Source: Dehalococcoidia bacterium (lineage in GTDB: Bacteria; Chloroflexota; Dehalococcoidia; UBA2979). From it: DNA of 64,000 nucleotides. The stretch lies in assembly GCA_965261685.1 (NCBI GenBank), contig CBDHDI010000027.1:344808-408807 (forward strand), written 5' to 3'. Below are positions 12,791 through 37,478 of the stretch, piece after piece (within the stretch, counting starts at the first letter, position 1; every line of letters begins with the position of its first letter). Under the pieces are notes generated by a model that worked only from the letters and a program-made list of their open reading frames with translations, did no database searches and was not told the origin of the DNA. A program made the translations under genes and the position numbers.

Positions 12791-12981
12791 GCACGCAGTA
12801 TCATGCGAGCAGCGACTGCTTCACCAGATCCGCGAACGCTACGACGTTGCGCGGCCCGCGAGGGGTAGCGCGCGAACTCAGGCAGGCCCCTCGGCGAAGG
12901 TGGCGAGGAGGGCCGTAAGGCTCGCTGCGAATGGCGCCTCCGGGTATTGACGCCGAGAGGCGGGACCGTCCTGATGACCAC

Positions 12982-14379
12982 ATGACGCGCGAGCACGGGG
13001 CGGTCGCGACGGCGAACGCCGGCGACAACGGCGCCCCGTCCGTCGCGGCGCCTCCGCCGCGCAGGCCGGGCGGGCGCATCTTCTTCGGCTGGTACATCGT
13101 CGCGGGCGGATTCCTGCTCTCCGCGCTCCTCGGCGGGTTGATGTTCCACGCCTTCGGGCAGTACGTCGTGGTGTTCGAGGAAGAGTTCGGCTGGAGCCGC
13201 ACGGCGCTCTCCATCGCCTTCTCGATCCAGATGGTGGAGTCCGGCCTGCTCGGCCCCCTCCAGGGCTGGGCGCTCGACAGGTTCGGTCCGAGGCGGATCA
13301 TGCTGATCGGGATCACGATCTTCGGCATCGGCTTCCTCCTGCTGAGCCAGATCAACACGCTCATCGAGTTCTACCTCGCCTTCATCGTGATCGCGCTCGG
13401 CCTGAGCGTCGGCGCGGGCATGGGTGTCGCCGTCGCGGTCGTGAACTGGTTCAACCGCAAGCGTGCGCTGGCGATGGCGATCGCGACCATGGGATTCGCC
13501 GTCGGCGGTCTCCTTCAGCCGGGCGTCGCGTGGGCGCTCGAGCACATCGGCTGGCGCGAGACCGCGATGCTCTCCGGGCTGATCGTGATCGTCACCGGGC
13601 TCCCGCTCGCGGGGCTGATGCGCCACCGCCCCGGCCAGTACGGCTACCGCGCCGACGGCGACCCGCCGCGCCAGGGCATAGCCGGTAGCGGTGCGATGTC
13701 CGACTACGACCCGGACGAGATCAACTTCACGTGGCAGGAGGCGCTGCGGACGCGCGCGTTCTGGCTGATCTCGATCGGTCACGCCGCCTCGCTGCTCGTC
13801 GTCGGCGCCGTGATGGTGCACTTCGTCTCCCACGTCACGGACAGCCTCGGCTACTCGCTGAGCGAGGCGGCGAACCTGCTGCTCGTGATCACGGTGACGA
13901 CCGTGATCGGCATGCTCGTCGGCGGCTACCTCGGCGACCGCCTCCCGATGCGCCACATCCTCGCGGTGGCGATGATCGGACACATGACGTCGCTGCTCGT
14001 GCTGACGCTGTGGACCTCGGTCTGGGGAGCCGTCGCCTTCACCGTGATCCACGGGCTCTCGTTCGGGTCGCGGGGTCCGCTCACGCAGGCGATCCGCGCC
14101 GAGTATTTTGGCCGCGCCGCGTTCGGCACGGTCATGGGCTTCTCGTCGTTGATCATCGTCCTGGGGATGGTGCTCGGCCCGATCGTGGCCGGGCTGAGTT
14201 ACGACCTCACGGGCTCCTACCGAACCGGCTTCATCGCCCTCGCGCTCGTCGCGGGCCTTGGCTCGTTCGCCTTCCTCGCCTCCACGCGCCCGCCTCCGCC
14301 GCCGTCGCTGCGATCGCCTGTGACGGCTCTCGCGGGCTCAGTCAGCCCCCTCGGCGAGCGAGACGAGGAGCGCCGGTAG
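12982..14379 (+). CDS. MFS transporter (oxalate:formate antiporter-like)
   Basis: 12-TM organisation, MFS loop motifs; ATG at 12982 (alternative 12931). Confidence 0.8.
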   Translation: MTREHGAVATANAGDNGAPSVAAPPPRRPGGRIFFGWYIVAGGFLLSALLGGLMFHAFGQYVVVFEEEFGWSRTALSIAFSIQMVESGLLGPLQGWALDRFGPRRIMLIGITIFGIGFLLLSQINTLIEFYLAFIVIALGLSVGAGMGVAVAVVNWFNRKRALAMAIATMGFAVGGLLQPGVAWALEHIGWRETAMLSGLIVIVTGLPLAGLMRHRPGQYGYRADGDPPRQGIAGSGAMSDYDPDEINFTWQEALRTRAFWLISIGHAASLLVVGAVMVHFVSHVTDSLGYSLSEAANLLLVITVTTVIGMLVGGYLGDRLPMRHILAVAMIGHMTSLLVLTLWTSVWGAVAFTVIHGLSFGSRGPLTQAIRAEYFGRAAFGTVMGFSSLIIVLGMVLGPIVAGLSYDLTGSYRTGFIALALVAGLGSFAFLASTRPPPPPSLRSPVTALAGSVSPLGERDEERR

Positions 14380-15045
14380 CTCCGTCAACGCCTCGATGCG
14401 GTGCGCGCCTTCGGGCAGCGGGTTGCCGTCGCCGAAGCGGTCGATCCAGACCGCCGTGAGCCCGGCACTGAGCGCGCCCTGCACGTCGGCGATCAGGCTG
14501 TCGCCGACGTGGGCCGTCGTCGCGGCGTCCGCTTCGAGGGCATCGAGGCCGCGCTCGAAGGCCGCGGCTGCCGGCTTCTTGGTCTCGCCGAACACCGTCA
14601 CCACGTCGTCGAAGTAGTGCGCGAAGCCCATGCGCCGCAGCACGGACTCAGGCATCGGCCCGTTGGTGAGCACCCCCAGCGCGTAGTGCTCGCGCAGCTG
14701 CTCGAGGGCGGGATAGACATCGGCAAAGGGGACGGCGTCGAGCAGCTCGCGGAAGCGCGCGATCAGGGCGTCGAGGGGGCGCTGCGGAACCTCGGGCAGC
14801 ACCGCGCGCCAGACCGGCATCGGGTCGACATCGATCCAGTAGTGCCGCCGCTCGACGATGCGCCCGTCGCGGCGATCGATGAGCTGCTCGTCGATCGCGC
14901 GCCAGATGCGCGTATCGAGGTCGCCGCGCAACTCCTCGGGCAGCATCTCGGGCACCTCGGACATGAGCTCGGCGAGGGCGCGGGCGATCCCCGCCTCCCA
15001 GTCGCGCAGCGTCCCGTCGAGGTCGAACAGCAGCGTGTCGATCAT
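14338..15045 (-). CDS. HAD-superfamily hydrolase
   Basis: Motif I FDLDGTL and downstream HAD motifs. Confidence 0.8.
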   Translation of the reverse strand: MIDTLLFDLDGTLRDWEAGIARALAELMSEVPEMLPEELRGDLDTRIWRAIDEQLIDRRDGRIVERRHYWIDVDPMPVWRAVLPEVPQRPLDALIARFRELLDAVPFADVYPALEQLREHYALGVLTNGPMPESVLRRMGFAHYFDDVVTVFGETKKPAAAAFERGLDALEADAATTAHVGDSLIADVQGALSAGLTAVWIDRFGDGNPLPEGAHRIEALTELPALLVSLAEGAD

Positions 15046-15105
15046 CGGGCGCCACGATAGCGGGGATCGGCGCAGCGGTCAGGACACCCGCGGTCTTCGA
15101 TGCGT

Positions 15106-16293
15106 TTATCCGGCGGGGGCGGCCGCGTCCGCGGGCTCGGCCCGGATCTTCGGTGGCGGCTTGCGAGAGCTGAGGAGCAGCACGGCGCCGAGCGCCAGGA
15201 CGATGGCGAGGGTGAAGAACGCGCCGTTGTAGTCGCCGACCGAATCGAAGTAGACCCCGGTGAGGATCGGGCCCGTCACGGCGATCACTACGCTGATCGG
15301 GAATCCGGTGCTGCGCACTGCGCCGATGTGGCGGCGTCCGAAGTACCAGGCCCACACGAAGTCGAAGAGCGGGAACATCCCGCCGACTCCGAAGCCGAAG
15401 AGCGCGAACACCACCAGCAGGGCGCCGAGCGAGGCGTCCGCTGCCGGAATCAGCAGCGCCAGGGAGATGCCCATCATCGCGATAGCCAGCGCGGTCAAGG
15501 TGCGCGGCGCGCGCGTTTGCATCGCCCACGCCCAGAAGAACTTCGAGGCCATCGCCACGCCGCCCTGCACCGCGAATGCAAAGGCGGCCTGGGAGCGCGT
15601 GTAGCCGACATCGGTCATGAACGGGATCACGTGCGAGTACACGGACGCCACGCCTGCCACGGCGAGCGCGAACCCGAGGACCAGGAGCCACATCGCCCTC
15701 GTGCGCAGCGCCTCGCCTCGCGTGTACGAGTTGGCGTAGTCGCTCCGCAGCTCCTCCATCTGCGCGAGTTCGCGCACGGTCTGCTCCTCGTCGCCGGTCT
15801 TGCCGTCGGGGAGCAGGCCGTAGTCCTCGGGCTGCCTGCGCATCACGAGCGAGCAGGGGAGCATCAGCACGAGGGTGGCGATGCCCATCACCACCCATCC
15901 GGACTCCCAGCCCCAGCGATCGACGATCCCAGTGAGGGCGAGCGGCGGGATCACGCCGCCGAGCGAGCTTCCGAGCGAGGCCAGCGCGATCACGCGCCCG
16001 CGGTTGATGACGAACCACTTTGAGAGCGTGGTGTTGACGACGAACGGCCCGAGCATGAAGAGACCGACCTGCGTCAGGGCGCCCCGCACGAGGATGAACT
16101 GCCACAGCGACTCGATCTGCGAGACGGCCACCAGCGCGATCCCGCCAACGACGGTGCCAACCAGCATGATCGGCCGCGCACCGTAGCGGTCGATCAGCGG
16201 GCCGAAGAAGACCCCGCTGATCCCGCCGATGCCGAACCCCAGCGAGGACGCCAGCACGAACTCGGAGCGTGTCCAGCCGAGGTCCTCGGTCAT
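15106..16293 (-). CDS. MFS transporter; TM1 is encoded in-frame upstream (to about 16424) but without a canonical start codon
   Basis: MFS topology; upstream in-frame translation gives YWGWWIFAAAIVGQFVTIGFAAQVTGVFL (TM1) preceded by an in-frame TGA and no ATG/GTG/TTG; ATG at 16431-16433 is in another frame. Confidence 0.7.
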   Translation of the reverse strand: MTEDLGWTRSEFVLASSLGFGIGGISGVFFGPLIDRYGARPIMLVGTVVGGIALVAVSQIESLWQFILVRGALTQVGLFMLGPFVVNTTLSKWFVINRGRVIALASLGSSLGGVIPPLALTGIVDRWGWESGWVVMGIATLVLMLPCSLVMRRQPEDYGLLPDGKTGDEEQTVRELAQMEELRSDYANSYTRGEALRTRAMWLLVLGFALAVAGVASVYSHVIPFMTDVGYTRSQAAFAFAVQGGVAMASKFFWAWAMQTRAPRTLTALAIAMMGISLALLIPAADASLGALLVVFALFGFGVGGMFPLFDFVWAWYFGRRHIGAVRSTGFPISVVIAVTGPILTGVYFDSVGDYNGAFFTLAIVLALGAVLLLSSRKPPPKIRAEPADAAAPAG

Positions 16294-16463
16294 CGGCTTG
16301 AGGAAGACACCCGTGACCTGTGCGGCGAAGCCGATCGTGACGAACTGCCCGACGATCGCGGCCGCGAAGATCCACCAGCCCCAGTAGATGCGGGGGCGGC
16401 GTGTCGCCGCTGTCAGCGCGATCCGCCGGTCATGTGCGCTCCTTCACGAGGCAGCACCGCATG

Positions 16464-17291
16464 CTAGTCCTCCCCCAGACCCCAGGCGATGCCGTTGCGC
16501 AGCAGCGTGCGGAAGCCCTCGGTCTCCCATGAGCCGAGGAGCTTGAGAGGCGGCTTGCCGTCGGCCGCAACGTTCTCGTGCACGAGGCGCTGGCTGTTCG
16601 TCGTCGGCGTGTGGCAGTGCCCGAGCGTCGTGTAGGCGACCGCGCCCGTGCCGAGTTCGCGCACGAAGGCAATCGCACGACGCGTGCTGCCGCCGTTCGG
16701 GAGCAGCGTCGTGTCGCGCTCGAAGTAGAAACCGGTCGGCGCCCCGGGCTGCACCTCGCCCCAGTCGGCGGTGAGCAGCAGCTGGCTGCGCTCCGGCGCC
16801 TGCAGTTCGACCATGTACGGCTCGTCGATCGTCTCGAAGGACTCCGGCAGGCCGCGCGTGAGCGGGTGCTGCGCGTCCACGAGGTCGACACGGAACTTGC
16901 GGATCGGCGGGTGGCTGAGGAAGAAGCCGCCGAGCGTCTCGTGGTAGGGCATCTTCACCATCTCGCGCTTGCTCGAGTCGGGCCGGCGCACGGCCTTGCC
17001 GCCGCTGCTGCCGTGCAGCGCCAGCCAGCGGCCCCCGGCCTCGAGCCACTGGCGCAGCACCGTATTGCCGTGCTCATCGGCGAAGGGGCCGGCGACGTAG
17101 GTGACGAGCAGGCGGCACTCGGGCAGCCACTTCTCGATGTCCGTGTAGTCCCCGGATACCGAGGTGTGCACGTGGTCCCGCTCCTTGAGCTGCTCGAGGA
17201 TGCGCAGCCGCGCGTAGTCGTGGTCGTGTCCGGCGGGCTTGCCGGGCGGGAAGCCCCCGGCGATCACGTGTGCTCGGATCGGCTCGTTCAT
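16464..17291 (-). CDS. ThuA-like (type-1 glutamine-amidotransferase-like, trehalose-utilisation) protein
   Basis: Characteristic ThuA-family sequence pattern along the whole length. Confidence 0.75.
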   Translation of the reverse strand: MNEPIRAHVIAGGFPPGKPAGHDHDYARLRILEQLKERDHVHTSVSGDYTDIEKWLPECRLLVTYVAGPFADEHGNTVLRQWLEAGGRWLALHGSSGGKAVRRPDSSKREMVKMPYHETLGGFFLSHPPIRKFRVDLVDAQHPLTRGLPESFETIDEPYMVELQAPERSQLLLTADWGEVQPGAPTGFYFERDTTLLPNGGSTRRAIAFVRELGTGAVAYTTLGHCHTPTTNSQRLVHENVAADGKPPLKLLGSWETEGFRTLLRNGIAWGLGED

Positions 17292-17322
17292 CTGCTGCTC
17301 CCTCCGGCGCTGCCCCCAAGCG

Positions 17323-18162
17323 TCAGTCGAGCGGATCCCGGTCCGAGCGATCGAAGGCGCCGAGCAGCTCGCGCGCGTCCGCCTCGATGACCTCTCGTCG
17401 GTCCGGGTGGGTGATCACGTAGAACTGGTTCTCGCGGATCGCGCGCAGCACGTGGCGTCCGACTTCCAGCGGGCCGATCGAGCGCGATCGGGCGAGGCGG
17501 TCCGGCCACTCGTAGGTCTCGGGCCCGCCGCGCTCGGCCGGGCGGTTGCGCGCGGCCTGCCAGATGCCGGTGTCGACGCCGCCGGGGCAAAGCACGGACA
17601 CGCCGATGCCGCTCCCGGCCAGCTCGCCGCGCAGGTTCCGGCTCATGCTCACCACCGCGAACTTCGACGCGATGTAGGCGCTGATCCCCCACCCGTCACC
17701 CGCGATCAGGCCGCCGATCGACGCGGTGTTGACCACGTGCGCTTCGCCGCCCCGCTCGCCGACCCGGGCGCGCATGCGCGGCACGAAGGCGTTGATCACG
17801 TGCACGACGCCGAGGACGTTCACGTCCAGGATCCAGCGCCAGTTGTCGAGGCTGTCCGGTCCGATCGGGGTGGGGCCGAGGACTCCGGCGTTGTTGCAGA
17901 GCACGTCTACGCCGCCGTGCTGCTCATCGCAGCGTGCGGCGAGCGCCTCGACGGCTGCCGGGTCGGTGACGTCGATGGTCTCCGCGCTCGCTTCGCCGCC
18001 TGCGTCGGCGATCTCTGTCGCGACCGCCGAGGCGGCGTCGGGCTCGATGTCGGCGACCACCACGCGCATGCTCTCGCCGGCGAGCGTGAGGGCGATCCCG
18101 CGGCCGATGCCGCTGCCTCCCCCGGTTACGAGCGCCACGCGGCCGTCCAGCTCCAGCACCAT
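17323..18162 (-). CDS. SDR-family NAD(P)-dependent oxidoreductase (paralogue A)
   Basis: TGGGSGIG Rossmann motif, NNAG, catalytic YxxxK (YIASK). Confidence 0.85.
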   Translation of the reverse strand: MVLELDGRVALVTGGGSGIGRGIALTLAGESMRVVVADIEPDAASAVATEIADAGGEASAETIDVTDPAAVEALAARCDEQHGGVDVLCNNAGVLGPTPIGPDSLDNWRWILDVNVLGVVHVINAFVPRMRARVGERGGEAHVVNTASIGGLIAGDGWGISAYIASKFAVVSMSRNLRGELAGSGIGVSVLCPGGVDTGIWQAARNRPAERGGPETYEWPDRLARSRSIGPLEVGRHVLRAIRENQFYVITHPDRREVIEADARELLGAFDRSDRDPLD

Positions 18163-18240
18163 GCACCTCCGAACTCCGAACTCGCAGGGGCACTATACGG
18201 GCCGCATGGGGCGCGGCAGCGGCCTGCGGCGCGGCGAGCG

Positions 18241-19080
18241 TCAGTCCAGCGGCTCGCGCTCGGATCGATCGAAGGCGCCGAGCAGTTCGCCCGAGGCTTC
18301 CTCGATCTGCTCGCGCCGCTCGGTGTGGGTGATGATGTAGAGTGCGTCCTCGCGGATCGCGCGCAGCACGTGGCGGCCGACCACCAGCGGGTCGAGCACG
18401 CGGGCGGGCAGGAGTCGGTCCGGCCGCTCGTACGTGTCGGGGCCGCCGCGCTCTGCGGGCCGGTTGCGCCCGGCCTCCCAGATGCGCGTGTCGACGCCGC
18501 CGGGGCAGAGCACGGAGACGCCGATGCCGCTCCCGGCCAGCTCGCCGCGCAGGTTCCGGCTCATGCTCACGACGGCGAACTTCGAGGCGCCGTAGGCGCT
18601 GTGGGCCCACCCGTCGCCCGCCCGCAGTCCGGCCATCGACGCGGTGTTGACCACGTGCGCCTCGCCGCCCGTGTCGCCGACTCGGGCGACCATCCGAGGC
18701 ACGAAGGCGTTGATCACGTGCGCCACGCCGAGGATGTTGACGTCGACGATCCAGCGCCAGTTGTCGACGCTCTCGGGACCGAGCGGTGTCGGACCGATCA
18801 CGCCGGCGTTGTTGCAGAGCACGTCCACGCCACCGTGCCGCTCGAAGCAGCGCTCGGCCAGCGCCTCGACGGCGGCGGGGTCGGTGACGTCGACGCTGTC
18901 CGCGCTCGCCTCGCCTCCCGCGTCGGCGATCTCCGCCGCGACCGCCTCGGCGGCGTCCAACTCGATGTCGGCGACCACGACGCGCATACCCGCGCCGGCG
19001 AGCGCGAGCGCGATCCCGCGTCCGATGCCACTGCCTCCGCCGGTCACGAGGGCCACCCGGCCGTCCAGCTCCCGCATCAT
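18241..19080 (-). CDS. SDR-family NAD(P)-dependent oxidoreductase (paralogue B)
   Basis: About 75% identical to paralogue A by eye; same motifs. Confidence 0.85.
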   Translation of the reverse strand: MMRELDGRVALVTGGGSGIGRGIALALAGAGMRVVVADIELDAAEAVAAEIADAGGEASADSVDVTDPAAVEALAERCFERHGGVDVLCNNAGVIGPTPLGPESVDNWRWIVDVNILGVAHVINAFVPRMVARVGDTGGEAHVVNTASMAGLRAGDGWAHSAYGASKFAVVSMSRNLRGELAGSGIGVSVLCPGGVDTRIWEAGRNRPAERGGPDTYERPDRLLPARVLDPLVVGRHVLRAIREDALYIITHTERREQIEEASGELLGAFDRSEREPLD

Positions 19081-19146
19081 CCACCTCCGAGTCCGGAACC
19101 CACGGGGGCACTATACGGGCGGCGAGGAGCCGCTCGATGACTTCGG

Positions 19147-20421
19147 TCAGCGCGCTCTTCGCTGCAGCGGGTTGCCTGTGGCAGCCACATACAGGGCCCA
19201 CGCACCCGCCAGCAGCGCGGCTCCGACGAGGAACCCTCCCTGGAAGCCGATTCTGGCGGCAATCAGGAAGCCCGTGAGCGGGCCCAACGCCGCCCCCAGG
19301 TCCAACCACGTCGAGTACCTGCTCATCACGGCGGCGCGCCTGGAGTCGGGCGATGTTTCGCCTATGGACGCATCGAGTGTCGCGTTCACTCCGACGGATG
19401 CGATGAACAACAGCGGTATCCCTACGACTGCGGCAACCACGGAGTCAAATGCAACTATCAGCGCCAGCGAAGCCAGTATCGTGGCCATTCCGTAGGCGAT
19501 GGACGTCCGCCTGCCCACGCGGTCCGAGAGGTGCCCCAGCGGCACGCCCAGGCTGAGGTCGGAAAGCCACCTGAACCCAATCAGGAGGCCGGCAAGCGTG
19601 ACCACGGCGAGCGATCCTCCGAGTACCTTCTCATTCTCATCGGCGAATTCAGCGAGGTAAGGAGCCGTGGTAGCAATGGCCAGACCATTCGCCGCGAACG
19701 CCGTCGCGAAGCGCATCAAGCTAATCGAGAGCAGGCGGAACCTGAGCTTGCGCCCGTAGCCGGGCAGGCCGGATACAGCGAGGTCCCAGGGGTTCAGGCG
19801 GTTTCGCAAGCCTCCGCCCGAGGAGCGGATGCGCTCGGGCCTCAGGTCCGGGACGCGAGTGGCGATGATCACGCCGATCAGTCCGACGCCTGCCAGAGTT
19901 GCGAACGTCACCTCTCGTGAAGTGAGTTGGAACAGCATCGCGCCCGCCGTGACTGCGAGCAGGCTGCCGAGCCGCTGGCCGGAGTTGAAGAACCCCATCA
20001 GCCTGCCCCGCATCGCCGAGGTACCGACTCCAAACGCCGTCAGCTGCGCCGCGAGTCGCATGTGCGAGTACGCCACTCCCCAGACGGCACGGGCCAGGAG
20101 CAGCAGCACGAGACCGTTTCCCAGACCGTACGCAAGTGTGGTGAGGGAGCCGGTGGCGATGGAAGCAACGAACGGCCAACGCACACCAAACCGCTGGTAG
20201 ACGGAGGCAGCGAAGGCGTTGCTGATGAGGCGAATGAAGCGGTTGACGCTGAGTGCGAGCCCGATCCAGAAGGACGCGGCGAGGCCGAACTGGTCACCGG
20301 CCCCAAATTCCACCGCCGCCACAGGCAGGACGACGTACATCAGCGAGTCGCCCATGATCACCGCGGCGGTGGGGGCTACCGCAAACACCATCCCGGCCGG
20401 AACGATCGGTCTCATCCGCAT
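19147..20421 (-). CDS. MFS transporter
   Basis: 12-TM MFS pattern; start moved to internal ATG (20421) to remove overlap with the SDR gene. Confidence 0.75.
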   Translation of the reverse strand: MRMRPIVPAGMVFAVAPTAAVIMGDSLMYVVLPVAAVEFGAGDQFGLAASFWIGLALSVNRFIRLISNAFAASVYQRFGVRWPFVASIATGSLTTLAYGLGNGLVLLLLARAVWGVAYSHMRLAAQLTAFGVGTSAMRGRLMGFFNSGQRLGSLLAVTAGAMLFQLTSREVTFATLAGVGLIGVIIATRVPDLRPERIRSSGGGLRNRLNPWDLAVSGLPGYGRKLRFRLLSISLMRFATAFAANGLAIATTAPYLAEFADENEKVLGGSLAVVTLAGLLIGFRWLSDLSLGVPLGHLSDRVGRRTSIAYGMATILASLALIVAFDSVVAAVVGIPLLFIASVGVNATLDASIGETSPDSRRAAVMSRYSTWLDLGAALGPLTGFLIAARIGFQGGFLVGAALLAGAWALYVAATGNPLQRRAR

Positions 20422-20491
20422 GACTGGAGTATGCCAGTGGTGCAGATGGCCGACGCCCCGGAACGCATGGCGGAGTCCATGCGGGCGCGGG

Positions 20492-21325
20492 TCAGACGGG
20501 CGTCTTCGCCGCGAGGTCGAAGGCGTCGAGGAGATCGCGGGTGGTTGCCTCGACGGCATCCCGTCGCTCGGGGTGGGTGATCGCGTAGAGCTGGTTCTCG
20601 CGGATCGCGTGCAGGGTGCGGCGCCCGACCTCGAGCGGGTCGATCACGCGGCCGTCGAGGCCGCTCGGCCGCTGGTATGTCTCGGGTCCGCCGCGCTCGG
20701 CCGGGCGGTTCCGGCCCGCCTGCCACATGCGAGTGGCGACCGCGCCGGGGCAGAGCACGGTGACGCCGATCCCGCTCCCGGCCAGTTCGTTGCGCAGGTC
20801 CCGGCTCATGCCCACGATCGCGAGCTGCGAAGCGCGGTAGGCGGCGATCTCCCACCTTCCGCCCGCAAGCAGCCCGGCGATGGAGGAGGCGTTGACCACG
20901 TGCGCCTCGCCACCCTCGGCGCCGATCCGGGCGAGCATCCGCGGCACGAAGGCGTGGACCGCGTGCACGAGGCCGAGGACGTTGACGTCAAGCACCCAGC
21001 GCCAGTTGTCGAGGCTCTCCGGTCCGATCGGCGTCGGGCCGACCACGCCGGCGTGGTTGCAGAGCACGTCGACGCCGCCGTAGCGCTCGTCGCAGCGCTC
21101 GGCCAACGCCTCGACGGCTGCCACGTCGCTCACATCGACGGTCTCGGCGCTCGCCTCGGCGCCCGAGGCGACGAGCTCCGCGGCCACCGCCTCGGCGGCG
21201 CCGGACTCGACATCGGCGACCACGACGCGCATGCCCTCGCCGGCGAGCGTGAGCGCGATCGCGCGGCCGATGCCGCCGCCTCCGCCGGTGATGAGCGCGA
21301 CCCGGCCGTCCAGTTCCTGCATCAC
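20492..21325 (-). CDS. SDR-family NAD(P)-dependent oxidoreductase (paralogue C)
   Basis: Same motifs and high identity to A and B. Confidence 0.85.
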   Translation of the reverse strand: MMQELDGRVALITGGGGGIGRAIALTLAGEGMRVVVADVESGAAEAVAAELVASGAEASAETVDVSDVAAVEALAERCDERYGGVDVLCNHAGVVGPTPIGPESLDNWRWVLDVNVLGLVHAVHAFVPRMLARIGAEGGEAHVVNASSIAGLLAGGRWEIAAYRASQLAIVGMSRDLRNELAGSGIGVTVLCPGAVATRMWQAGRNRPAERGGPETYQRPSGLDGRVIDPLEVGRRTLHAIRENQLYAITHPERRDAVEATTRDLLDAFDLAAKTPV

Positions 21326-21393
21326 ACACCTCCGCGCTCAGCGCCTCAGGAGCACGCTGGCGCAGCCGGTCGACTTCCCTGCCGTTGCTGCGT

Positions 21394-21903
21394 TCAGGAA
21401 GTGATGAGTATCCCGCCAAACAGGCAGGAGCCTGTGACAGTGAGCCTGGCTCGTGGGTCGGAGGGCTCCGCCCGTCTGGATTCAATGCTTCCGAAGGTGG
21501 CGGAGGAGCGCACATCGACCGCCCAGTCGGGCGGAACGCGGAGGTTGATCTGGCCGAACAGCGCGCTGGCGTTGACTGCGGCCACACCGTCAATGGGAGC
21601 CGCAGCGCGGAGATCAATCTCGGCGTTGCCGAAGGTGGCGGAGACGTTGCCGCCACGGAAGTGCTCGCTGGCGGAGATCTGGTTGCTACTGGAGAAGAGG
21701 CAGGCGACGTTGAGCTCGTCGTCCGCCTCAGGAGCTCTGTTGGCGCCGAAGGGCGAGTAACCGACGATGATGGCCGCACCGATGGCGATGAGCGCTACTG
21801 GCCAGAGAGATGACCCGTCGAGTCCGAGAATGCCCAGGTTGTACAGCAGAAATGCGGCCGCTACGGCAATAATCGGCAGGCCGCCCTTCCAATTGCCGCT
21901 CAA
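21394..21903 (-). CDS. LiaF-like (DUF2154-type) membrane protein, TTG start
   Basis: Two N-terminal TM helices (SLWPVALIAIGAAIIV) plus beta-rich C-terminal domain, resembling the 5968-6534 product. Confidence 0.5.
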   Translation of the reverse strand: MSGNWKGGLPIIAVAAAFLLYNLGILGLDGSSLWPVALIAIGAAIIVGYSPFGANRAPEADDELNVACLFSSSNQISASEHFRGGNVSATFGNAEIDLRAAAPIDGVAAVNASALFGQINLRVPPDWAVDVRSSATFGSIESRRAEPSDPRARLTVTGSCLFGGILITS

Positions 21904-21931
21904 GGCGGTGGAGAGGCCGGCGACTGTCGTT

Positions 21932-23545
21932 GAGCAGCGATTCGGTCAGTAGTTAACGGAGCAGCGATTCTGTCAGTCCCCAGCCAGCGAGCAGGGGGTG
22001 ACAGGTGCAGCAGTCCGAAGAAGCACGACGCTACGTACTCGAAGGGGTGATGGCCGGAGATCTGCGGGCCTCGCAGGCCGCCGAGATCCTGGGCATCAGC
22101 GAGCGACACGCGTGGCGGCTCCTCGCCGCCTACCGTGCGCGCGGAACCGCCGCGTTGGAGCACGGCAACCGCGGGCGCCGTCCGCACAACGCCGTCCCGG
22201 CCGCCGTCGCCGCGGCCGTGGTGCGCTTCGCCAGCACCCGCTACCCGGGAGCGAACCACACCCACCTCGCCGAGTTGCTCTGGGAGCACGAGGACCTGGA
22301 CGTGAGCAGTTGGACCGTCCGCCGGATCCTGGCGCGGGCCGGCATCGCGAGTCCCCGCCGCCGCCGGCCCCCCGAGCACCGTGTCCGGCGTGAGCGGATG
22401 CCCCGCGAGGGGATGCTGCTCCAGGTCGACGGCAGCCACCACGCCTGGCTCGAGCAACGCGGTCCGCGCTTCGCCTTGCTGCTCGCCGTCGACGATGCGA
22501 CCGGCGCAGCCGTGCACGCCCTCTTCCGCCCCGTCGAGGACGCGCGCGGCTACTTCCTCCTGCTGGAGGAGATCGTCCGGCTCTGCGGCATCCCGCTCGC
22601 CCTCTACAGCGACCGCCACGGCGTCTTCAAAGCCTCCTCCGACGGACGGCGGGGCCTGAAGGTCGCAACCCAATTCGCACGGGCGATGCGGGAACTCGGG
22701 ATCACCCAGATCTTCGCCCGCTCACCGCAGGCGAAGGGCCGCGTGGAACGTGCCGCAGGGACGTTCCAGGACCGGTTGGTGACCGAACTCAGCGACGCCT
22801 CGGCTTCCACCATCGCCGAGGCCCAGACCGTGCTCGAGCGCTTCCTGCCGCGCTTCAACGCCCGCTTCCGGGTCCCTGCGGCAGAGCCCGCGGTGGCCTA
22901 CCGCCCGCTCGACCCCGCGCTCCCGCTCGCCTCCATCCTCGGCTTCCGGCACCCCCGCAGCGTCGCCCGCGACAACACGGTCAAGTATCGCTGGCGCACG
23001 CTCCAGCTGCTGCCCGGGCGCGAGCGGACCAGCTACGCCGGGGCACGGGTCGAGGTGCTGGAACGGCCGGGCGGCGAGCTCTCCGTCCTGCACCAGGGGG
23101 AGACGATCGCCTCGCGCGAGGCGCCGCCGCGCGCCGGGGTGTTGAGGGCGGCGCGCTCCGAGCTGGCCCGGAACCCCGACCACGAGCGCATCGCCTCAGG
23201 GCTCGGTTCCGGAGGAGCACCCCGGCGGCTCCCCGTGGCGCCTGCCGTCCCGGCGGCGGAGGGTGCGCCCAACGGGGCCGCCGTGAAGCCCGCGCCCGGG
23301 AGCAAGCAGCTCCGCCCACCCACGCCCCGACAGCGCGCCCGCTGGAAGGCGATCCAGCAGGCGCGGCTACAGGGACTCTCGATGCGGGCAACCGCCAGGC
23401 TGCTCGGGATCTCCCGCGACACCGTCAGCAGCTACGTCCGGGCCAACGGCGTGCCTGGACGCCAGACCGGCACCGCGGCATCCTCCGACGGAGACGGCGG
23501 GACTGACAAAGTCGCTGCTCTCTTGCACTGACGAAATCGCTGCTC
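21932..23545 (+). mobile_element. insertion sequence (about 1.6 kb) carrying one DDE transposase; each end has two copies of an 18-bp terminal inverted repeat (gagcagcgattcKgtcag)
   Basis: Left end 21932-21976 (gagcagcgattcggtcag...gagcagcgattctgtcag); right end 23503-23545 is the reverse complement (ctgacaaagtcgctgctc...ctgacgaaatcgctgctc). Confidence 0.75.
22005..23531 (+). CDS. DDE transposase (rve/integrase-core, IS481/ISNCY-like) with N-terminal and extra C-terminal HTH
   Basis: HTH (ILGISERHAWRLL), integrase core with DDE-type pattern, stop inside the right inverted repeat. Confidence 0.8.
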   Translation: MQQSEEARRYVLEGVMAGDLRASQAAEILGISERHAWRLLAAYRARGTAALEHGNRGRRPHNAVPAAVAAAVVRFASTRYPGANHTHLAELLWEHEDLDVSSWTVRRILARAGIASPRRRRPPEHRVRRERMPREGMLLQVDGSHHAWLEQRGPRFALLLAVDDATGAAVHALFRPVEDARGYFLLLEEIVRLCGIPLALYSDRHGVFKASSDGRRGLKVATQFARAMRELGITQIFARSPQAKGRVERAAGTFQDRLVTELSDASASTIAEAQTVLERFLPRFNARFRVPAAEPAVAYRPLDPALPLASILGFRHPRSVARDNTVKYRWRTLQLLPGRERTSYAGARVEVLERPGGELSVLHQGETIASREAPPRAGVLRAARSELARNPDHERIASGLGSGGAPRRLPVAPAVPAAEGAPNGAAVKPAPGSKQLRPPTPRQRARWKAIQQARLQGLSMRATARLLGISRDTVSSYVRANGVPGRQTGTAASSDGDGGTDKVAALLH

Positions 23546-23718
23546 GTCGACACGGCGACCGCAAGGAATAGTGGCCACCACTGCCCCAGCGGCAATTCGA
23601 CGCTGCTTACGAGTGGCACCAGGAACAGTGCCCCCAACACGATGAGCGCAACCCCGGCAAGTCTGTTGTTGGCCATGGCAGAGTGCCTCCGCATTCCGAG
23701 GTGCCCGTAACCAAGCAT
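23546..23718 (-). pseudogene. N-terminal fragment (2 TM helices) of a LiaF-like gene, truncated by the IS insertion
   Basis: ANNRLAGVALIVLGALFLVPLV...QWWPLFLAVAV matches the N-termini of the LiaF-like genes, then the reading frame runs into the IS right inverted repeat. Confidence 0.5.
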
Positions 23719-23784
23719 AGCCCAGAGGCTGAAGACGCCGGGTTGCCTGCATGGACGCGGACCGTGCGTGACCCGCGACGCGGG

Positions 23785-24624
23785 TCAGACGGGGGTGTTC
23801 GCCGCCAGGTCGAAGGCGTCGAGCAGTTCCTCGGCGCCCGCCTCCACCTGGTGCTTTCGCTCCGGGTGGGTGATCGCGTAGAGCTCGTTCTCGCGGATCG
23901 CATGCAGCACGCGACGTCCGACCTCGAGCGGGCCGATCACGCGCTCGCCCTCGAGGCGGCCCGGCCGCTCCCATGTCTGCGGCCCGCCGTGCTCGGCCGG
24001 CCGGTTGCGCCCGGCCTGCCAGATGCGCGTCTCGACGCCGCCGGGGCAGAGCACCGAGACGCCGATGCCACTCCCGGCCAGCTCGGCGCGGAGGTCCCGG
24101 CTCATCGCCACGATCGCGAACTTCGAGGCGCGGTAGGCGGTGATCTCCCATCCACCGCCCGCAAGCAGGCCGCCGCCGAGGGACGAGGTGTTGACCACGT
24201 GCGCCTCGCCGCCGCTCTCGGCCACCCGGGCGCGCATCCGCGGCACGAAGGTGTTGATCGCGTGCACGACGCCGAAGAGGTTGACGTCGAGGATCCAGCG
24301 CCAGCTATCGAGGCTCTCCGGTCCGATCGGCGTGTGGCCAACCACGCCCGCGTTGTTGCAGAGCACGTCGACGCCGCCGTAGCGTTCGTCGCAGCGGTCG
24401 GCGAGCGCCTCGACGGCCGCGACATCGCTCACGTCGACGGTCTCGGCGATCGCCTCACCGCCCGCGGCGGTAGTCTCCGCCGCCACCGCCTCGGCGGCGT
24501 CCGACTCGACATCGGCGACCACGACGCGCATGCCCTCGCCGGCGAGTGCGAGCAGGATCCCGCGGCCGATGCCGCTGCCGCCCCCGCTGACCAGCGCCAC
24601 GCGACCCTCGAGCTCCCGCATCAT
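23785..24624 (-). CDS. SDR-family NAD(P)-dependent oxidoreductase (paralogue D)
   Basis: Same motifs and high identity to A-C. Confidence 0.85.
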   Translation of the reverse strand: MMRELEGRVALVSGGGSGIGRGILLALAGEGMRVVVADVESDAAEAVAAETTAAGGEAIAETVDVSDVAAVEALADRCDERYGGVDVLCNNAGVVGHTPIGPESLDSWRWILDVNLFGVVHAINTFVPRMRARVAESGGEAHVVNTSSLGGGLLAGGGWEITAYRASKFAIVAMSRDLRAELAGSGIGVSVLCPGGVETRIWQAGRNRPAEHGGPQTWERPGRLEGERVIGPLEVGRRVLHAIRENELYAITHPERKHQVEAGAEELLDAFDLAANTPV

Positions 24625-24814
24625 GCACCTCCTCGCGCAGAACCAGCGGAGGCACTATACGAGGCGTGGCGAGGCCGGGGACGGCGGGCTGCGGGCGAGC
24701 CGTCGGCCCGCAGCCCGCGAGCAGCGCTTGCCTCCGCCCCGGGGCGCCCTCGCTGACAGGACATGGGCCGGGGAGTAATAAACCGAGTGGTTATTAAACC
24801 GGATGGTGTAGCAC

Positions 24815-25201
24815 ATGCCGACCGCCACAACCCATCGAGACCCGCTCAGCGTCACCTTCGCGGCGCTTGCCGACCCGACGCGGCGCGCGATCCTCGCTCG
24901 GCTGGTCGAGGGGGAGGCGCCCGTAACCGAACTCGCGAGGCCGTTCGAGATCAGCTTGCCGGCGGTGTCAAAGCACCTCAAGGTACTTGAGCGTGCGGGC
25001 CTGATTGAGCGCAGCCGCCACGCCCAGTGGCGTCCCTGCCGGCTTGAGGCGGCCCCGCTCAGGGAGGTGGCCGACTGGGTGACACGCTACCGCCGATTCT
25101 GGCAAGAGGGCTTCGATCGCCTCGACGATTACCTCACCGAGATGCAGCAGGAGCCGGCGCAAGGCCGACGGCAGACGGAGCACGATGACGGCAAGCGATA
25201 G
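24815..25201 (+). CDS. ArsR/SmtB-family transcriptional regulator
   Basis: wHTH (ADPTRRAILARL...ELARPFEISLPAVSKHLKVLERAGLI). Confidence 0.85.
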   Translation: MPTATTHRDPLSVTFAALADPTRRAILARLVEGEAPVTELARPFEISLPAVSKHLKVLERAGLIERSRHAQWRPCRLEAAPLREVADWVTRYRRFWQEGFDRLDDYLTEMQQEPAQGRRQTEHDDGKR

Positions 25202-25694
25202 CAGCGGCGCGAGCACAGAGGCGCAGGCCGTCACGATCGAGCGCGTCTTCGACGCCCCGCGCGAGGTCGTCTGGCGGGCCTTCACGGAGCCCGAGCACTT
25301 CATGCGCTGGTATGGGCCACAGGGCGTGGCCATGTCCGCTTGCGAGATTGACCTCCGGGTGGGCGGCCGCCACCTCTTCGGCTTGCGCATGCCCGATGGC
25401 CGGGACTACTGGACCAGCGGCGTCTACCTCGAGATCGTGCCGCTCGAGCGCTTCGTCTGCACGGACTCGATGACGGACGAGCACGGCAACATCGTTAGCC
25501 CGGCGCACTACGGGATGGGCGGGGACACCCCGATCGAGACGACGGTCACCGTCTCGCTCGATGACCTCGGCGACGGCAAGACGATGGTCACGCTCAGCCA
25601 GGCGGGGTGGCCGGACCCGAACATGGCAGCCGGCGCCGGCGGCGGCTGGAATCAGGCCTTCGACAAGCTCGCGGAGCTGCTCGCGGCTGCCTGA
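25185..25694 (+). CDS. SRPBCC/Aha1-domain protein
   Basis: Aha1-like pattern (RVFDAPREVVWRAFTEPEHFMRWYGP); typical ArsR partner. Confidence 0.75.
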   Translation: MTASDSSGASTEAQAVTIERVFDAPREVVWRAFTEPEHFMRWYGPQGVAMSACEIDLRVGGRHLFGLRMPDGRDYWTSGVYLEIVPLERFVCTDSMTDEHGNIVSPAHYGMGGDTPIETTVTVSLDDLGDGKTMVTLSQAGWPDPNMAAGAGGGWNQAFDKLAELLAAA

Positions 25695-25705: not shown

Positions 25706-28015
25706 CTAGCCGCCGCTCCGCACCGCGCGCGCGGCCTCGACCATGTGCTCGAGGGCGGGGACGACCTCGTCGTAGCGGCGGGTCTTGAGGCCGCAGTCGG
25801 GGTTCACCCAGAGGCGATCGGGGTCGAGCACGGACGCGGCGTCGCGCAGGCTGCTCGCCATCTCCGCCGTCGAGGGCACGCGCGGCGAGTGGATGTCGTA
25901 GACGCCGAGGCCGACTTCCTTGTCATAACCGTGGTCACGGAACGCATCGAGGCCCTCGGCGTCGGAGCGGGCGTTGAAGAGCAGCATCACGTCGGCCTCC
26001 ATGTCGGAGACCGCGTCCAGCACGTCGCGCAGCGGCACGTAGCACATGTGCGACTGGATCTGCGTCGTGTCGGCGGCCCCGGCGGTGGCGAGGCGGAAGC
26101 AGGGGACCGACCAGCCGAGGTAGGCGGGCCAGTCCGCGCGCCGTAGCGGGACGCCCTCGCGCAGCGCCGGTTCGTCCACCTGGATGACGGCGATGCCGGC
26201 CGCCTCGAGGTCGGCGACCTCCTCGCGGATGGCGAGCGCGATCTGGCGGCAGGTCTCGCTGCGCGGCTGGTCGTCGCGCACGAACGACCAGTTGAGGATC
26301 GTGACCGGTCCGGTCAGCATGCCCTTCACCGGGCGGTCCGTCAGCGACTGCGCGTAGGCGGACCAGCGCACGGTCATCGGGCCGGGCCGCGCCACGTCGC
26401 CGTAGATGATCGGCGGCTTCACGTTGCGCGAGCCGTAGGACTGCACCCAGCCGAAGCGCGTGAAGGCGAAGCCGGCGAGCTGTTCGCCGAAGTACTCGAC
26501 CATGTCGTTGCGCTCGGACTCGCCGTGCACGAGCAGGTCGAGGCCGGTCTCCTCCTGCAGCCGGATCACGCGCTCGATCTCGGCCTCGATGAAGGTCTCG
26601 TACTCCGCGTCGTTGATCTCGCCGCTGTTGCGGCGGCGGCGGGCGCGGCGGATCTCGGGCGTCTGCGGGAACGAGCCGATCGTCGTCGTCGGGAACTCCG
26701 GCAGCCGCAGCCGCTCGCGCTGGGCCTGGCGGCGCTCCTCGACGGAGCCGTCGCGGCTGTAGTCGGCCTCCGAGGTGGCGGCGACGCGCTCCCGCACGTC
26801 CGGGTCGTGCGTGCGCGGCGAGCTGCGGCGCGACTCGAGGGCGGCGCGGTTGGCGGCCAGTTCGCCGGCCGCGGCGCCGGGGTTGCCGAAGGAGCGAGCC
26901 AGCGTGGCGACCTCGTCGACCTTCTGGTTGGCGAAGGCGAGCCAGGAGCGCAACTCGGGGTCGAGCCTGGTCTCCAGCTCGAGCTCGAGCGGGACGTGCA
27001 GCAGCGAGCACGAGGTGCCCGCGATCACGCGGTCGTCGCCGACGGCCGCGCCGACCTCGCGCAGCGTCGCGAGCGAGGCGTCGAGGTCGTTGATCCAGAC
27101 GTTGCGCCCGTCCACGACGCCCGCGACGACGTGCTTGCCGCCGGGCAGCCCGTGGCGTTGCAGCAGCCCGAGGTTGCGCCCGCCTCGCACGAGGTCGAGG
27201 CCGATCGCGGCGACGGGCAGCGCGACCAGCGCGCCGAACGACTCGTCCACGTCGCCGAAGTAGGTCTGCACCAGCAGCTTCGTCCCGCCCGCGGCTCCCG
27301 CAAGGCGGTCGTACGCCATCGCGAGGGCGGCGAGGTCCTCGGGCGAGCGGTCCTGCACCAGCACCGGCTCGTCGAGCTGCACCCACTGCGCGCCGGCGTC
27401 ACGCAGCAGCGCGATCACCTGCTCGTAGACGTCGAGCAGGGCGGGCAGCAGCGAGAGCCGGTCGAAGCCGGGATCCTGGTGGCCGTCGCTGCCGACGCCC
27501 TTGCCGAGCAGCAGCAGCGAGAGCGGGCCGAGCAGCACCGGCACGGTCTCGATGCCCGCCTCGCGCGCCTCGAGGTACTCGTCGAGCGGCTTGCGCGAGG
27601 CGAGGCGGAAGCGCGTGGAGGCGCTGAGTTCGGGGACGATGTAGTGGTAGTTCGTGTCGAACCACTTGATCATCTCCATCGCGGTCACGTCGAGGCCCTC
27701 GCGCTGCGCCCCGCGCGCCATCGCGAAGTAGGTCTCCGCATCCACCTCGCCCTCGCCGCTGTCGCCGTAGCGAGGCGGGACCGCGCCGACCATCGCGATC
27801 GCGTCGAGCACGTGGTCGTAGTGGGAGAAGGTGTTCGAGGGAATGAGGTCGATGCCCGCCTCGCGCATGCGCTGCCAGCCCTCGAGGCGCAGCGCGCGCC
27901 CGGTCTCGTCGAGGGCGTCGCGGTCCACCCTGCCGTCCCAGTAGCCCTCGACGGCGCTCTTCAATTCGCGCCGCGGGCCGATGCGCGGGTAGCCGGTGAT
28001 GGCGGACAGGGTCAT
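25706..28015 (-). CDS. metE: cobalamin-independent methionine synthase
   Basis: Full-length two-domain MetE with conserved N- and C-terminal motifs. Confidence 0.95.
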   Translation of the reverse strand: MTLSAITGYPRIGPRRELKSAVEGYWDGRVDRDALDETGRALRLEGWQRMREAGIDLIPSNTFSHYDHVLDAIAMVGAVPPRYGDSGEGEVDAETYFAMARGAQREGLDVTAMEMIKWFDTNYHYIVPELSASTRFRLASRKPLDEYLEAREAGIETVPVLLGPLSLLLLGKGVGSDGHQDPGFDRLSLLPALLDVYEQVIALLRDAGAQWVQLDEPVLVQDRSPEDLAALAMAYDRLAGAAGGTKLLVQTYFGDVDESFGALVALPVAAIGLDLVRGGRNLGLLQRHGLPGGKHVVAGVVDGRNVWINDLDASLATLREVGAAVGDDRVIAGTSCSLLHVPLELELETRLDPELRSWLAFANQKVDEVATLARSFGNPGAAAGELAANRAALESRRSSPRTHDPDVRERVAATSEADYSRDGSVEERRQAQRERLRLPEFPTTTIGSFPQTPEIRRARRRRNSGEINDAEYETFIEAEIERVIRLQEETGLDLLVHGESERNDMVEYFGEQLAGFAFTRFGWVQSYGSRNVKPPIIYGDVARPGPMTVRWSAYAQSLTDRPVKGMLTGPVTILNWSFVRDDQPRSETCRQIALAIREEVADLEAAGIAVIQVDEPALREGVPLRRADWPAYLGWSVPCFRLATAGAADTTQIQSHMCYVPLRDVLDAVSDMEADVMLLFNARSDAEGLDAFRDHGYDKEVGLGVYDIHSPRVPSTAEMASSLRDAASVLDPDRLWVNPDCGLKTRRYDEVVPALEHMVEAARAVRSGG

Positions 28016-28362: not shown

Positions 28363-29337
28363 TCAGCTCTGACTCGGTATCCCGAGAGCGACGAGGAGGC
28401 GCGCCCGGAACGACTCCCAGTCCGACCCCTCGGCGGCGCTGATCTGAGCGTAGTCGAAGAACTGGGTGGTCGACGGCGACTCGCGGGTGATCCGGTCGCG
28501 ATCGAGGCCCATCAACGCGATCAGGGTCCAGCGATGTTCAAAGTGAGCCTGCCGAGCCTTGATGTGGCTCTTCTCGGCCTCGCCGACGCGGTTGTGGGCG
28601 TTGGAAATATCGCTGCCACCCTTGATCTCCATTGCAACCTTGGGCTCGCGCCCGCCCTCGATTACTTCGTAGATTCGTACGTCGGGATCACTCGAGAACT
28701 CGATAGCCACGGGGCGATCAGCTGCGTTGCGCAGGCGAAGGTGCGTCTTGGACTTAAACTCCAGGAACTCCCCGGCTATCGCGCGGATACGCTCGTGGAC
28801 GACGAGGACTGCGTCACTTCCGATCGCCACGTTTCGCTGTCCTTGGAGTGTTGGGCCGAGTGTCAGCAGCGCCAGGTCCTGGAGGTCCCGATCCGTGAAC
28901 GAGAACATCGCGTCGGCGAGTCTGCTCAAAGCGTCCGCCATGGTGCGGCAGAGTTCCGGAATCTCGGCGTCCCGGTCAGGGGTCAGGACGCCGTTGACTT
29001 CTGCGCCCTCGAAGCGCTGGTAGCCGTAGGTCTGTCGCCACGCCTTGCGCGAGATACCAAGCAGCATCCGGTAGTAGCCGATGAGCGTCGGCCTGGCGCG
29101 GATGACGCTGGGCACGGGGAACACCCGCTCGCCACGGATCCCGAGCGCGGCGAGCCGGGTCAGTGGCCCGTCCGCCACGAACTCGGCCAGTTCGCGGTCT
29201 ACGGTCCGCGCGCCTGCGGCTTCGACGGCCTCAGCAACGCCCTCCTGGAGGTACAGCGGGCGGAGCGCCAGCAGCGAGTCGAACAGATGGATCGCGATGT
29301 CTGGTTCGAGCTTCTCAAAGTTGCCCTGAGTCGTCAC
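28363..29337 (-). CDS. putative type II restriction endonuclease (324 aa), translationally coupled to the upstream methyltransferase
   Basis: GTG start overlaps MTase TGA stop (GTGA at 29334-29337); PD-(D/E)xK-like DVRIYEV...EIKGG; size and gene order resemble CCCGGG-type Cfr9I/XmaI/XcyI systems (inference). Confidence 0.55.
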   Translation of the reverse strand: MTTQGNFEKLEPDIAIHLFDSLLALRPLYLQEGVAEAVEAAGARTVDRELAEFVADGPLTRLAALGIRGERVFPVPSVIRARPTLIGYYRMLLGISRKAWRQTYGYQRFEGAEVNGVLTPDRDAEIPELCRTMADALSRLADAMFSFTDRDLQDLALLTLGPTLQGQRNVAIGSDAVLVVHERIRAIAGEFLEFKSKTHLRLRNAADRPVAIEFSSDPDVRIYEVIEGGREPKVAMEIKGGSDISNAHNRVGEAEKSHIKARQAHFEHRWTLIALMGLDRDRITRESPSTTQFFDYAQISAAEGSDWESFRARLLVALGIPSQS

Positions 29338-37403: not shown

Positions 37404-37478
37404 TGGCGCCCTCGGGAGGACTCGAACCTCCGCACAGGGATTAGGAATCCCATGCTCTGTCCCCTGAGCTACGAGGGC
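37404..37478 (-). tRNA. tRNA-Arg (anticodon CCT), CCA encoded
   Basis: Manual cloverleaf: acceptor GCCCUCG/CGAGGGC, U8, anticodon loop UUCCUAA, T-loop TTCGAGT. Confidence 0.85.

Follow-up and report, generated by a model that had tools for sequence, protein, structure and literature searches.

A conserved array of four short-chain dehydrogenase/reductase paralogues in uncultured Dehalococcoidia, one with a fixed Lys-to-Gln substitution

Results

Four SDR Paralogues Lie on One Strand of the Locus

The stretch of DNA analyzed here (64,000 nucleotides of contig CBDHDI010000027.1, from a Dehalococcoidia bacterium; hereafter the window) contains four genes for short-chain dehydrogenases/reductases (SDRs), all on the minus strand, that we name A (17323-18162), B (18241-19080), C (20492-21325) and D (23785-24624). 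Each is an open reading frame (ORF), encoding 277 amino acids (aa) in the case of C and 279 aa in the others, and each product matches adh_short (PF00106) with 155-169 bits (155 for D) against a gathering cutoff of 26.6, bearing out the coordinates, strand and lengths given in an initial annotation of this DNA. Translation of C probably begins at the ATG at 21322. Along the minus strand, the genes follow each other as an ArsR/AHSA1/MetE flank, D, the 5′ part of a LiaF-like gene, an insertion sequence (IS), the 3′ part of the LiaF-like gene, C, the transporter gene MFS2, B, A, a ThuA-like gene, MFS1 and a HAD gene, with MFS3 on the opposite strand. A tblastn search found exactly four members of the family in the window, whose mutual E-values of 1e-109 to 1e-135 are far beyond chance. 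An unrelated SDR-like gene (58924-59736, plus strand) is ~28% identical to A-D.

The initial annotation had called the four copies near-identical, at odds with its own estimate of roughly 70-80% protein identity, and it is the estimate that agrees with the measured 68-80%. Global protein identity is 80% between A and B, about 77-78% between C and D, and 68-74% for the cross pairs. DNA identity among the four is 81-85%, a figure that is high relative to protein identity because GC content at third codon positions (GC3) is 92-93%, and that is to be read as inflated by it.

The cofactor motifs TGGG(S/G)GIG and VVVAD(I/V)E are found in the clades of all four copies (defined below), as is an acidic Asp at the end of strand beta2 which aligns with Asp36 of LigL, a residue of NAD preference. 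A and B carry the canonical motifs, D has TGxxxGxG, NNAG, the Ser and YRASK, and the Lys of YxxxK is kept in 58 of 58 proteins of the A, B and D clades, while C reads YRASQ and NHAG. Judged by these motifs, A-D are classical NAD-type SDRs. Their best matches in the PDB (Lig codes assigned as in PMC4858972) are LigO (4YA6; E 3.5e-43; 261 positions aligned at 38% identity, the C-terminal extension included), LigL (4YAE; E 3.2e-40), LigD (4Y98; E 2.5e-30) and, with comparable scores, the uncharacterized SDRs 3ioy, 5ig2 and 3tjr. The Lig alignment spans residues 4-270; the three uncharacterized proteins score as well or better, especially against C. In all four clades, an Arg also lines up with LigL Arg222, within a loop that is gapped and of uncertain alignment.

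Each Copy Groups with Orthologues from Other Species

We compared the locus with its counterparts in relatives (labels L001-L055 denote the loci or contigs used), taking the single-copy ThuA-like gene as an anchor, which gave 48 loci in species-representative genomes. The exact sequence of the A protein was not on record in an exact-sequence look-up; the closest SDR homologues come from metagenome-assembled genomes (MAGs) labeled Dehalococcoidia or Chloroflexi bacterium. In a neighbor-joining tree of 113 full-length homologues, each window copy groups with proteins of other genomes in a clade of its own, with the topology ((A,B),(C,D)), and a gap separates the A-D clades from outgroup SDRs of ~50% identity. 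A second tree, of 46 array genes from 12 genomes with 200 bootstraps, recovers the clades of A, B, C and D in 189, 199, 200 and 197 of 200 replicates (94.5-100%) and the AB|CD split in 200 of 200. Array position corresponds to clade without exception among these 46 genes, and the window copies are up to 97% identical to orthologues of other species, closer than to their own neighbors. The copies thus cluster away from each other, in bootstrapped orthologue clades, a result which contradicts the recent local duplication that the initial annotation had read from the array.

The gene order tells the same story. All 10 loci whose ThuA-like protein is at least 81% identical to that of the window carry D-C-B-A-ThuA-MFS1-HAD beside MetE, and the layout recurs in four further contigs, from metagenomes or NCBI. 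Of the 48 anchored loci, those whose ThuA-like protein reaches no more than 79% identity are without such SDRs in the vicinity. The order D-C-B-A-ThuA-MFS1-HAD is found in L002, L026, L036, L005-L010, L028, L048 and L054, and it is conserved in at least 10 species-level Dehalococcoidia MAGs. The most compact array is that of L054, which reads MetE-D-C-DUF2177-B-A-ThuA-MFS-HAD. Four copies in the same order are present in 11 of 13 genomes, closed chromosomes among them, and the remaining two each lack one copy (A in L006, B in L009). Array size in related strains, which had been proposed as a gauge of amplification, is therefore stable.

Read together with D-C-B-A as the order on the DNA, the topology ((A,B),(C,D)) accords with single-gene duplication in two rounds and not with the duplication of a two-gene block. 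Successive single-gene tandem duplications first gave an ancestor of A and B and an ancestor of C and D, and then one more copy in each; both rounds preceded the divergence of the known species of the clade, after which each copy became an orthologue lineage of its own under purifying selection. Duplication of an SDR+MFS module was considered and rejected, MFS2 being unrelated to MFS1 and MFS3.

Other members of the family were met outside these loci. In another Chloroflexota genome (L055, 8001-10485), three genes of the same SDR family form a head-to-tail tandem triplet; their products, all with YxxxK, are 57-77% identical among themselves and 45-50% identical to A-D, and their neighbors are SnoaL-like, cupin, alpha/beta-hydrolase and thiolase genes, with no ThuA. 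Since this triplet is independent, tandem arrays recur in this SDR family. A deep-branching SDR of a fifth type (P0079, on contig L053) is basal to C plus D and keeps the Lys.

All Four Clades Are Constrained, with Little Sign of Recombination

We estimated the ratio of nonsynonymous to synonymous substitution (omega) among orthologues by the Nei-Gojobori method, clade by clade. The values are 0.29 for A, 0.23 for B, 0.29 for C and 0.21 for D, which indicates that all four clades are under purifying selection, and nonsynonymous divergence (dN) between the window paralogues is 0.12-0.20. The selection for diversified function envisaged in the initial annotation fits the omega range of 0.21-0.29 and the clade-specific, conserved differences at the active site.

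The longest identical run is 53 nucleotides (nt) between A and B, 44 nt between C and D and 21-27 nt in the other pairs. A local peak of identity common to A-B and B-D sits over the conserved SRNLRGELAGSGIGVSVLCPGG segment and is therefore attributed to constraint and not to gene conversion. Unequal crossing-over was considered and rejected, the remaining A/B gene of L006 and of L009 being cleanly B or A throughout in sliding windows against the A and B clades, with no chimera. Chimeras of D and C, which the shifted position of the LiaF-like gene (see below) might suggest, were likewise sought and none was seen, solely the last ~40 nt of the two genes being nearly alike. Because the identical runs are short and chimeras are absent, the repeats are, on this sequence comparison, poor and little-used recombination substrates. 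The earlier suggestion that they promote recombination and copy-number change thus keeps weak support from the 2 of 12 genomes that are short of one copy, and loses it on the lack of chimeric genes and the longest identical run of 53 nt.

In two low-coverage long-read contigs (L003, 4x; L004, 10x), several SDR genes appear as fragments, for example 90 + 52 aa for B and 177 + 105 aa for C; this fragmentation may reflect sequencing error and not pseudogenization.

Copy C Has Lost the Catalytic Lys and Often Overlaps D

Copy C departs from the other three at the active site. Gln replaces the catalytic Lys (YRASQ) in 29 of 29 database proteins of the C clade, and two further partial C sequences likewise read YRASQ; at the same position, Lys is kept in the 58 proteins of A, B and D and in 22 of 22 outgroup proteins. 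The Gln aligns with Lys162 of LigL. In addition, NNAG has become mostly NHAG, and further changes near the active site are conserved across the clade (KF to QL, PGGV to PGAV, NTAS to NASS). C keeps the positions aligned with LigL Asn115, Ser144, Tyr158 and Asp36, and its cofactor motifs are intact. At the DNA level, C is full-length and intact in 12 of 12 genomes checked. Because of this, and because its omega equals that of A, we read C as a maintained gene with a remodeled active site (N-S-Y-Q, not N-S-Y-K) and not as a pseudogene. The product would be catalytically impaired or altered, with the cofactor probably still bound.

We also surveyed the junction between D and C, in the 12 aligned genomes and, by its gene calls, in L054 (n = 13). 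The stop codon of D shares 1 nt with the start codon of C (TGATG or TAGTG) in 7 of the 12 aligned genomes and in L054, that is, in 8 of 13. The overlap is found in near relatives of the window (L005, L006) as well as in far ones (L048, L054) and is therefore probably ancestral. From this arrangement, C most likely works together with D, the two being predicted to be coupled in translation in most genomes. Elsewhere in the array, gaps across genomes are 25-114 nt between B and A and 18-50 nt between A and the ThuA-like gene (31 nt in the window).

An IS Splits the LiaF-Like Gene and Leaves the SDR Genes Untouched

Between D and C lies an ISNCY-family IS of 1,628 bp (21925-23552, plus strand), delimited by the break of the alignment with relatives, by inverted repeats and by a target duplication. 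Its terminal inverted repeats measure 26 nt (21925-21950 and 23527-23552; 85% complementarity), with the repeat motif present twice per end, and a perfect 7-bp target duplication, CGGCGAC, flanks it (left copy 21918-21924, right copy 23553-23559). The alignment with four uninterrupted relatives (L002, L026, L036, L004) breaks at 21924/23553, with the 7-bp overlap in the relatives. On the minus strand, the element separates a 5′ fragment of the LiaF-like gene (23553-23676; codons 1-41, MANNRLAG...LFLAVA) from the 3′ fragment (21394-21924); removing the IS together with one copy of the duplication restores a 215-aa LiaF-like ORF, near-identical to that of L002.

The element encodes a 508-aa transposase (22005-23531, plus strand) with N-terminal helix-turn-helix (HTH) domains (Pfam HTH_23/28/29/32), a DDE core and a C-terminal HTH. 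It scores 372.6 bits against NF033594 (transpos_ISNCY_2; cutoff 250), so that the element resembles ISNCY in its transposase, inverted repeats, 7-bp duplication and length of 1.6 kb; it differs in a C-terminal HTH region of ~140 aa beyond the ISNCY model, which is conserved in a homologue from L053 (70% identical over 497 aa). Element size and duplication length fit the ISDol1 group of ISfinder, its putative subgroup. No other copy of the IS occurs in the window, and no DNA match to it was found in the loci of relatives that were searched for it. The target duplication and both halves of the gene are intact and no relative carries the element, all of which indicates that the IS entered the LiaF-like gene recently and in this strain only, near codon 40, without touching any SDR gene. 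The initial annotation was thus right that an IS is present, but what the IS disrupts is the LiaF-like gene and not an SDR gene.

Contig L053 (1-20855), which holds the transposase homologue at 15669-17135, is crowded with genes for transposases and resolvases (IS110, IS21, rve, Transposase_mut). The LiaF-like gene, together with its upstream spacer, lies after C in L005 and L006 and after D in the sublineage of the window; as the last ~40 nt of D and C are almost alike, its relocation by recombination at the gene ends is conceivable, and no chimeric coding signature accompanies it.

Neighboring Genes and Antisense ORFs

The ThuA-like gene (16464-17291, minus strand; 275 aa), which always adjoins the array, matches PF06283 with 62.2 bits against a cutoff of 33.4, and its product has no match in NCBIfam. 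Profile matches and synteny identify the next genes on the minus strand as MFS1 (15106-16293), a conserved member of the locus, and, conserved downstream of it, a HAD-family hydrolase gene (14338-15045); the convergent MFS3 (12931-14379, plus strand) is a conserved flank. MFS1 and MFS3 are 31% identical to each other and best resemble carboxylate carriers (of the monocarboxylate and oxalate-formate kinds and, for MFS1, also of lactate), all below cutoffs. MFS2 (19147-20421, minus strand; 424 aa, identified by Pfam), between C and B, has a GC3 of 0.80, compared with 0.92-0.93 in the flanking genes, and is found just in the closest relatives of the window (L002, L026, L036, L004); it seems to have been inserted later and is possibly foreign. 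Of the neighbors listed in the initial annotation, the ThuA-like gene, the LiaF-like gene and the IS are thus present, while MFS2 is the one MFS gene inside the array, MFS1 lying beyond the ThuA-like gene, outside the range that the annotation covered, and MFS3 further out.

The genes found among the SDRs differ by lineage: the LiaF-like gene and MFS2, with or without a methyltransferase gene, in the sublineage of the window; the LiaF-like gene between C and B in L005 and L006; and DUF1801, DUF2177 and ERG4/24 genes in L001/L008. On this distribution, the interspersed genes (LiaF-like, MFS2, methyltransferase, DUF1801, DUF2177, ERG4/24) are later, lineage-specific insertions into an older core of four SDR genes.

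On the right flank, synteny places an ArsR-type regulator gene (24815-25201, plus strand), an AHSA1/SRPBCC gene (25185-25694, plus strand) and MetE (25706-28015, minus strand). The first two overlap by 17 nt, run divergently from D and, in the closest relatives, are conserved together between the array and MetE; the ArsR protein might regulate the array. In L004, a gene with an FRG domain is inserted between ArsR and D. Farther right in the window, a 623-aa ORF (28363-30234, minus strand) joins an N6_N4 DNA methylase domain (residues 52-187) to a full XcyI-type endonuclease domain (320-620; E 6.6e-78), and its product looks like a fused restriction-modification protein. An Rfam scan of the whole window found five tRNA genes and no rRNA; the tRNA genes are all on the minus strand, at 37407-37478, 41161-41233, 61210-61400 (two adjacent) and 62813-62886.

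Long ORFs also run along the plus strand over the array, at 17239-19140 (633 aa, over A and B), 20219-21760 (with no Pfam match) and 23683-24756. In the first and the last of these, GC content peaks at codon position 1 (0.90), the mirror of the GC3 of the true genes, and orthologous loci do not preserve the open antisense frame over B-A, the longest stretch without a stop varying there from 342 to 639 aa. These plus-strand ORFs are artefacts and not genes, as the initial annotation had recognized for the ORF at 17239-19140, which it described as a ghost of 600 aa.

Discussion

Based on the trees, the synteny and the constraint on each clade, the explanation that we favor is that the array is an old, vertically inherited set of four SDR paralogues, common to a clade of uncultured, high-GC Dehalococcoidia. 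As to function, A, B and D would be NAD(H)-dependent secondary-alcohol/ketone oxidoreductases of a LigD/PRK06194-like subgroup that carries a C-terminal extension; they would differ in the substrates or stereoisomers that they accept and probably act on imported organic acids or alcohols. Taking the age of the array and this functional part together, we consider the explanation likely, with good confidence. Several points weigh against it. Both trees were built by neighbor joining only. Synonymous divergence among the window paralogues (dS 0.33-0.43) is compressed by a GC3 of 93%, so that it is not a clock and gives no absolute date. None of the four proteins reaches an NCBIfam equivalog cutoff, their scores against the best model, PRK06194 (NF004843), being 217-226 bits under a curated cutoff of 308. 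The coupling of D and C is not universal, the LiaF-like gene lying between them in the sublineage of the window (with, in the window, the IS as well). Finally, consensus scans for promoters and terminators over 14000-25500 found none, fewer than in shuffled sequences, and are uninformative for this organism.

The alternatives differ mainly in what the SDRs do. The one that fares best holds that D and C form an obligate heteromeric SDR (e.g., D2C2), in which D would be catalytic and C a non-catalytic or regulatory pseudoenzyme completing the assembly or the substrate pocket. The absence of the catalytic Lys from every C orthologue, despite purifying selection, is what such a partnership would predict, and the two genes are sister clades, always adjacent in array order, with neither lost in 13 genomes and with the 1-nt overlap of stop and start in 8 of them. 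The beta subunit of petunia benzaldehyde synthase (PhBS) and, so far as the same paper cites it, BbsCD offer precedents (PMC13418739). Against this stand the genes that separate D from C in the sublineage of the window and in L008, and the intact cofactor motifs, Asn, Ser and Tyr of C, which would also suit an enzyme of altered chemistry in place of a scaffold. We regard the heteromer as a tentative possibility.

In a second alternative, the four genes would encode stereospecific C-alpha-dehydrogenases of the Lig kind, acting on aromatic dimers from lignin or on similar ones, with one stereoisomer per paralogue. The Lig enzymes of Sphingobium sp. SYK-6 are NAD+-dependent, stereospecific benzylic-alcohol dehydrogenases, likewise four paralogues split by substrate chirality, and in LigL Arg222 is essential for turnover of GGE while Asp36 accounts for NAD preference (PMC4858972). 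LigO, LigL and LigD are the best-characterized solved relatives of A-D, and the Arg aligned with the essential Arg222 occurs in all four clades. However, identity is just 38%, the uncharacterized 3ioy, 5ig2 and 3tjr score at least as well, the Arg stands in a loop of uncertain alignment, and one of the four paralogues is without the catalytic Lys. Moreover, the genes called up to ~10 kb away in L001-L004 and L054 include none with a glutathione S-transferase (GST) domain, as in beta-etherases. Such a set is therefore unlikely.

Somewhat harder to sustain is the sugar or polyol (trehalose-type) oxidation locus at which the initial annotation had hinted, in which ThuA and the SDRs would oxidize imported sugars. 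The ThuA match, a modest one, is above the Pfam cutoff and MFS genes adjoin, as this reading would have it. Yet the ThuA/ThuB trehalose system, whose ThuA domain is present here, is otherwise missing: neither an adjacent ThuB-like gene (Gfo/Idh/MocA), nor a sugar ABC transporter, nor a Sugar_tr-type MFS gene was found within ~10 kb, in the window or at the syntenic loci of relatives. MFS1 and MFS3 resemble carboxylate carriers (below cutoffs), the more distant ThuA homologues of other lineages occur without these SDRs, and the nearest characterized SDRs act on aromatic benzylic alcohols and not on sugars. A literature search on ThuA/ThuB and on HSD17B8/CBR4 gave nothing usable on mechanism. 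We consider a sugar locus quite improbable.

It is very improbable that C is a decaying, functionless relic and the array simply redundant: the loss of the Lys, the altered NNAG and a slightly longer branch (dN to A and B of 0.18-0.20, vs 0.17-0.18 for D) would be expected of a relic, while the full-length frame in all genomes checked, an omega equal to that of the canonical A and the invariance of the Gln and of the substitutions around it over 29 homologues would not. That this strain or species amplified the genes recently and locally, under selection for dosage or for a broader range of substrates, and that their number is unstable, is scarcely credible, since the support for this view (copies of equal length, clustered on the same strand, and the absence of one copy in each of L006 and L009) is set against protein identities of merely 68-80%, orthologues in other species that are closer than the neighboring copies, a constant order of four in 11 of 13 genomes, closed chromosomes included, and the lack of chimeric genes.

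Clustered paralogues of equal length in a high-GC genome can thus look freshly amplified, where here they very probably form an ancient and stable family. Overall, the locus is an ordinary conserved paralogue array with a routine IS insertion, in which the fixed Lys-to-Gln change of C and the coupling of C to D are the sole features of further interest. As such, it provides a clean example, in an uncultured Dehalococcoidia clade, of four tandem SDR paralogues retained over a long time, including one in which a Lys-to-Gln change is fixed.

Comparison with Known Systems

Like A-D, LigD/L/N/O are a set of four paralogous, classical NAD-type SDRs with a C-terminal helical extension and the Asp of NAD preference; their N-S-Y-K tetrad is common to A, B and D, while C differs by its Gln. 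The Sphingobium lig genes are not all clustered and, unlike the genes of the window, they do not form a conserved tandem array with ThuA, MFS and HAD genes. A second comparison is with the SAR202 marine Chloroflexi, which hold many SDR paralogues that were proposed to oxidize alcohol groups of recalcitrant organic matter (PMC5395668). The expansion of SDR paralogues in uncultured Chloroflexota is shared with the present locus; the comparison made for the SAR202 paralogues was with cyclopentanol and hydroxysteroid dehydrogenases, and no conserved four-gene array was described among them.

The closest parallel to the D/C pair is in heteromeric SDRs. In the alpha2beta2 enzyme PhBS, the catalytic Lys is replaced by Leu in the beta subunit, which is inactive and yet required for assembly (PMC13418739), and BbsCD of Thauera aromatica is cited there (as its reference 30) for inactive pseudoenzyme subunits. 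As far as that account goes, both systems, like the putative D/C pair, combine a canonical SDR with a paralogue missing one residue of the catalytic tetrad (Lys replaced by Leu in the beta subunit of PhBS and by Gln in C), and the partner genes are kept together and both constrained. The subunits of PhBS are only ~30% identical to each other, compared with 77% for D and C, and the cofactor motifs of C are intact; among the top PDB matches of A-D, no close sequence relationship to BbsCD or PhBS was seen. If D and C did form a heteromer with a non-catalytic subunit, they would be a bacterial addition to the short list of such SDR complexes and would offer a handle on the substrates that these uncultured organisms oxidize. 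In its fullest form, which we put forward with still more reserve than the heteromer itself, C would be a pseudoenzyme or an altered-chemistry subunit of a heteromeric SDR, within a set of four paralogues that divide among themselves the stereoisomers or related substrates of imported organic matter as LigD/L/N/O do, such that D and C might be the Dehalococcoidia counterpart of BbsCD and of the plant benzaldehyde synthase.

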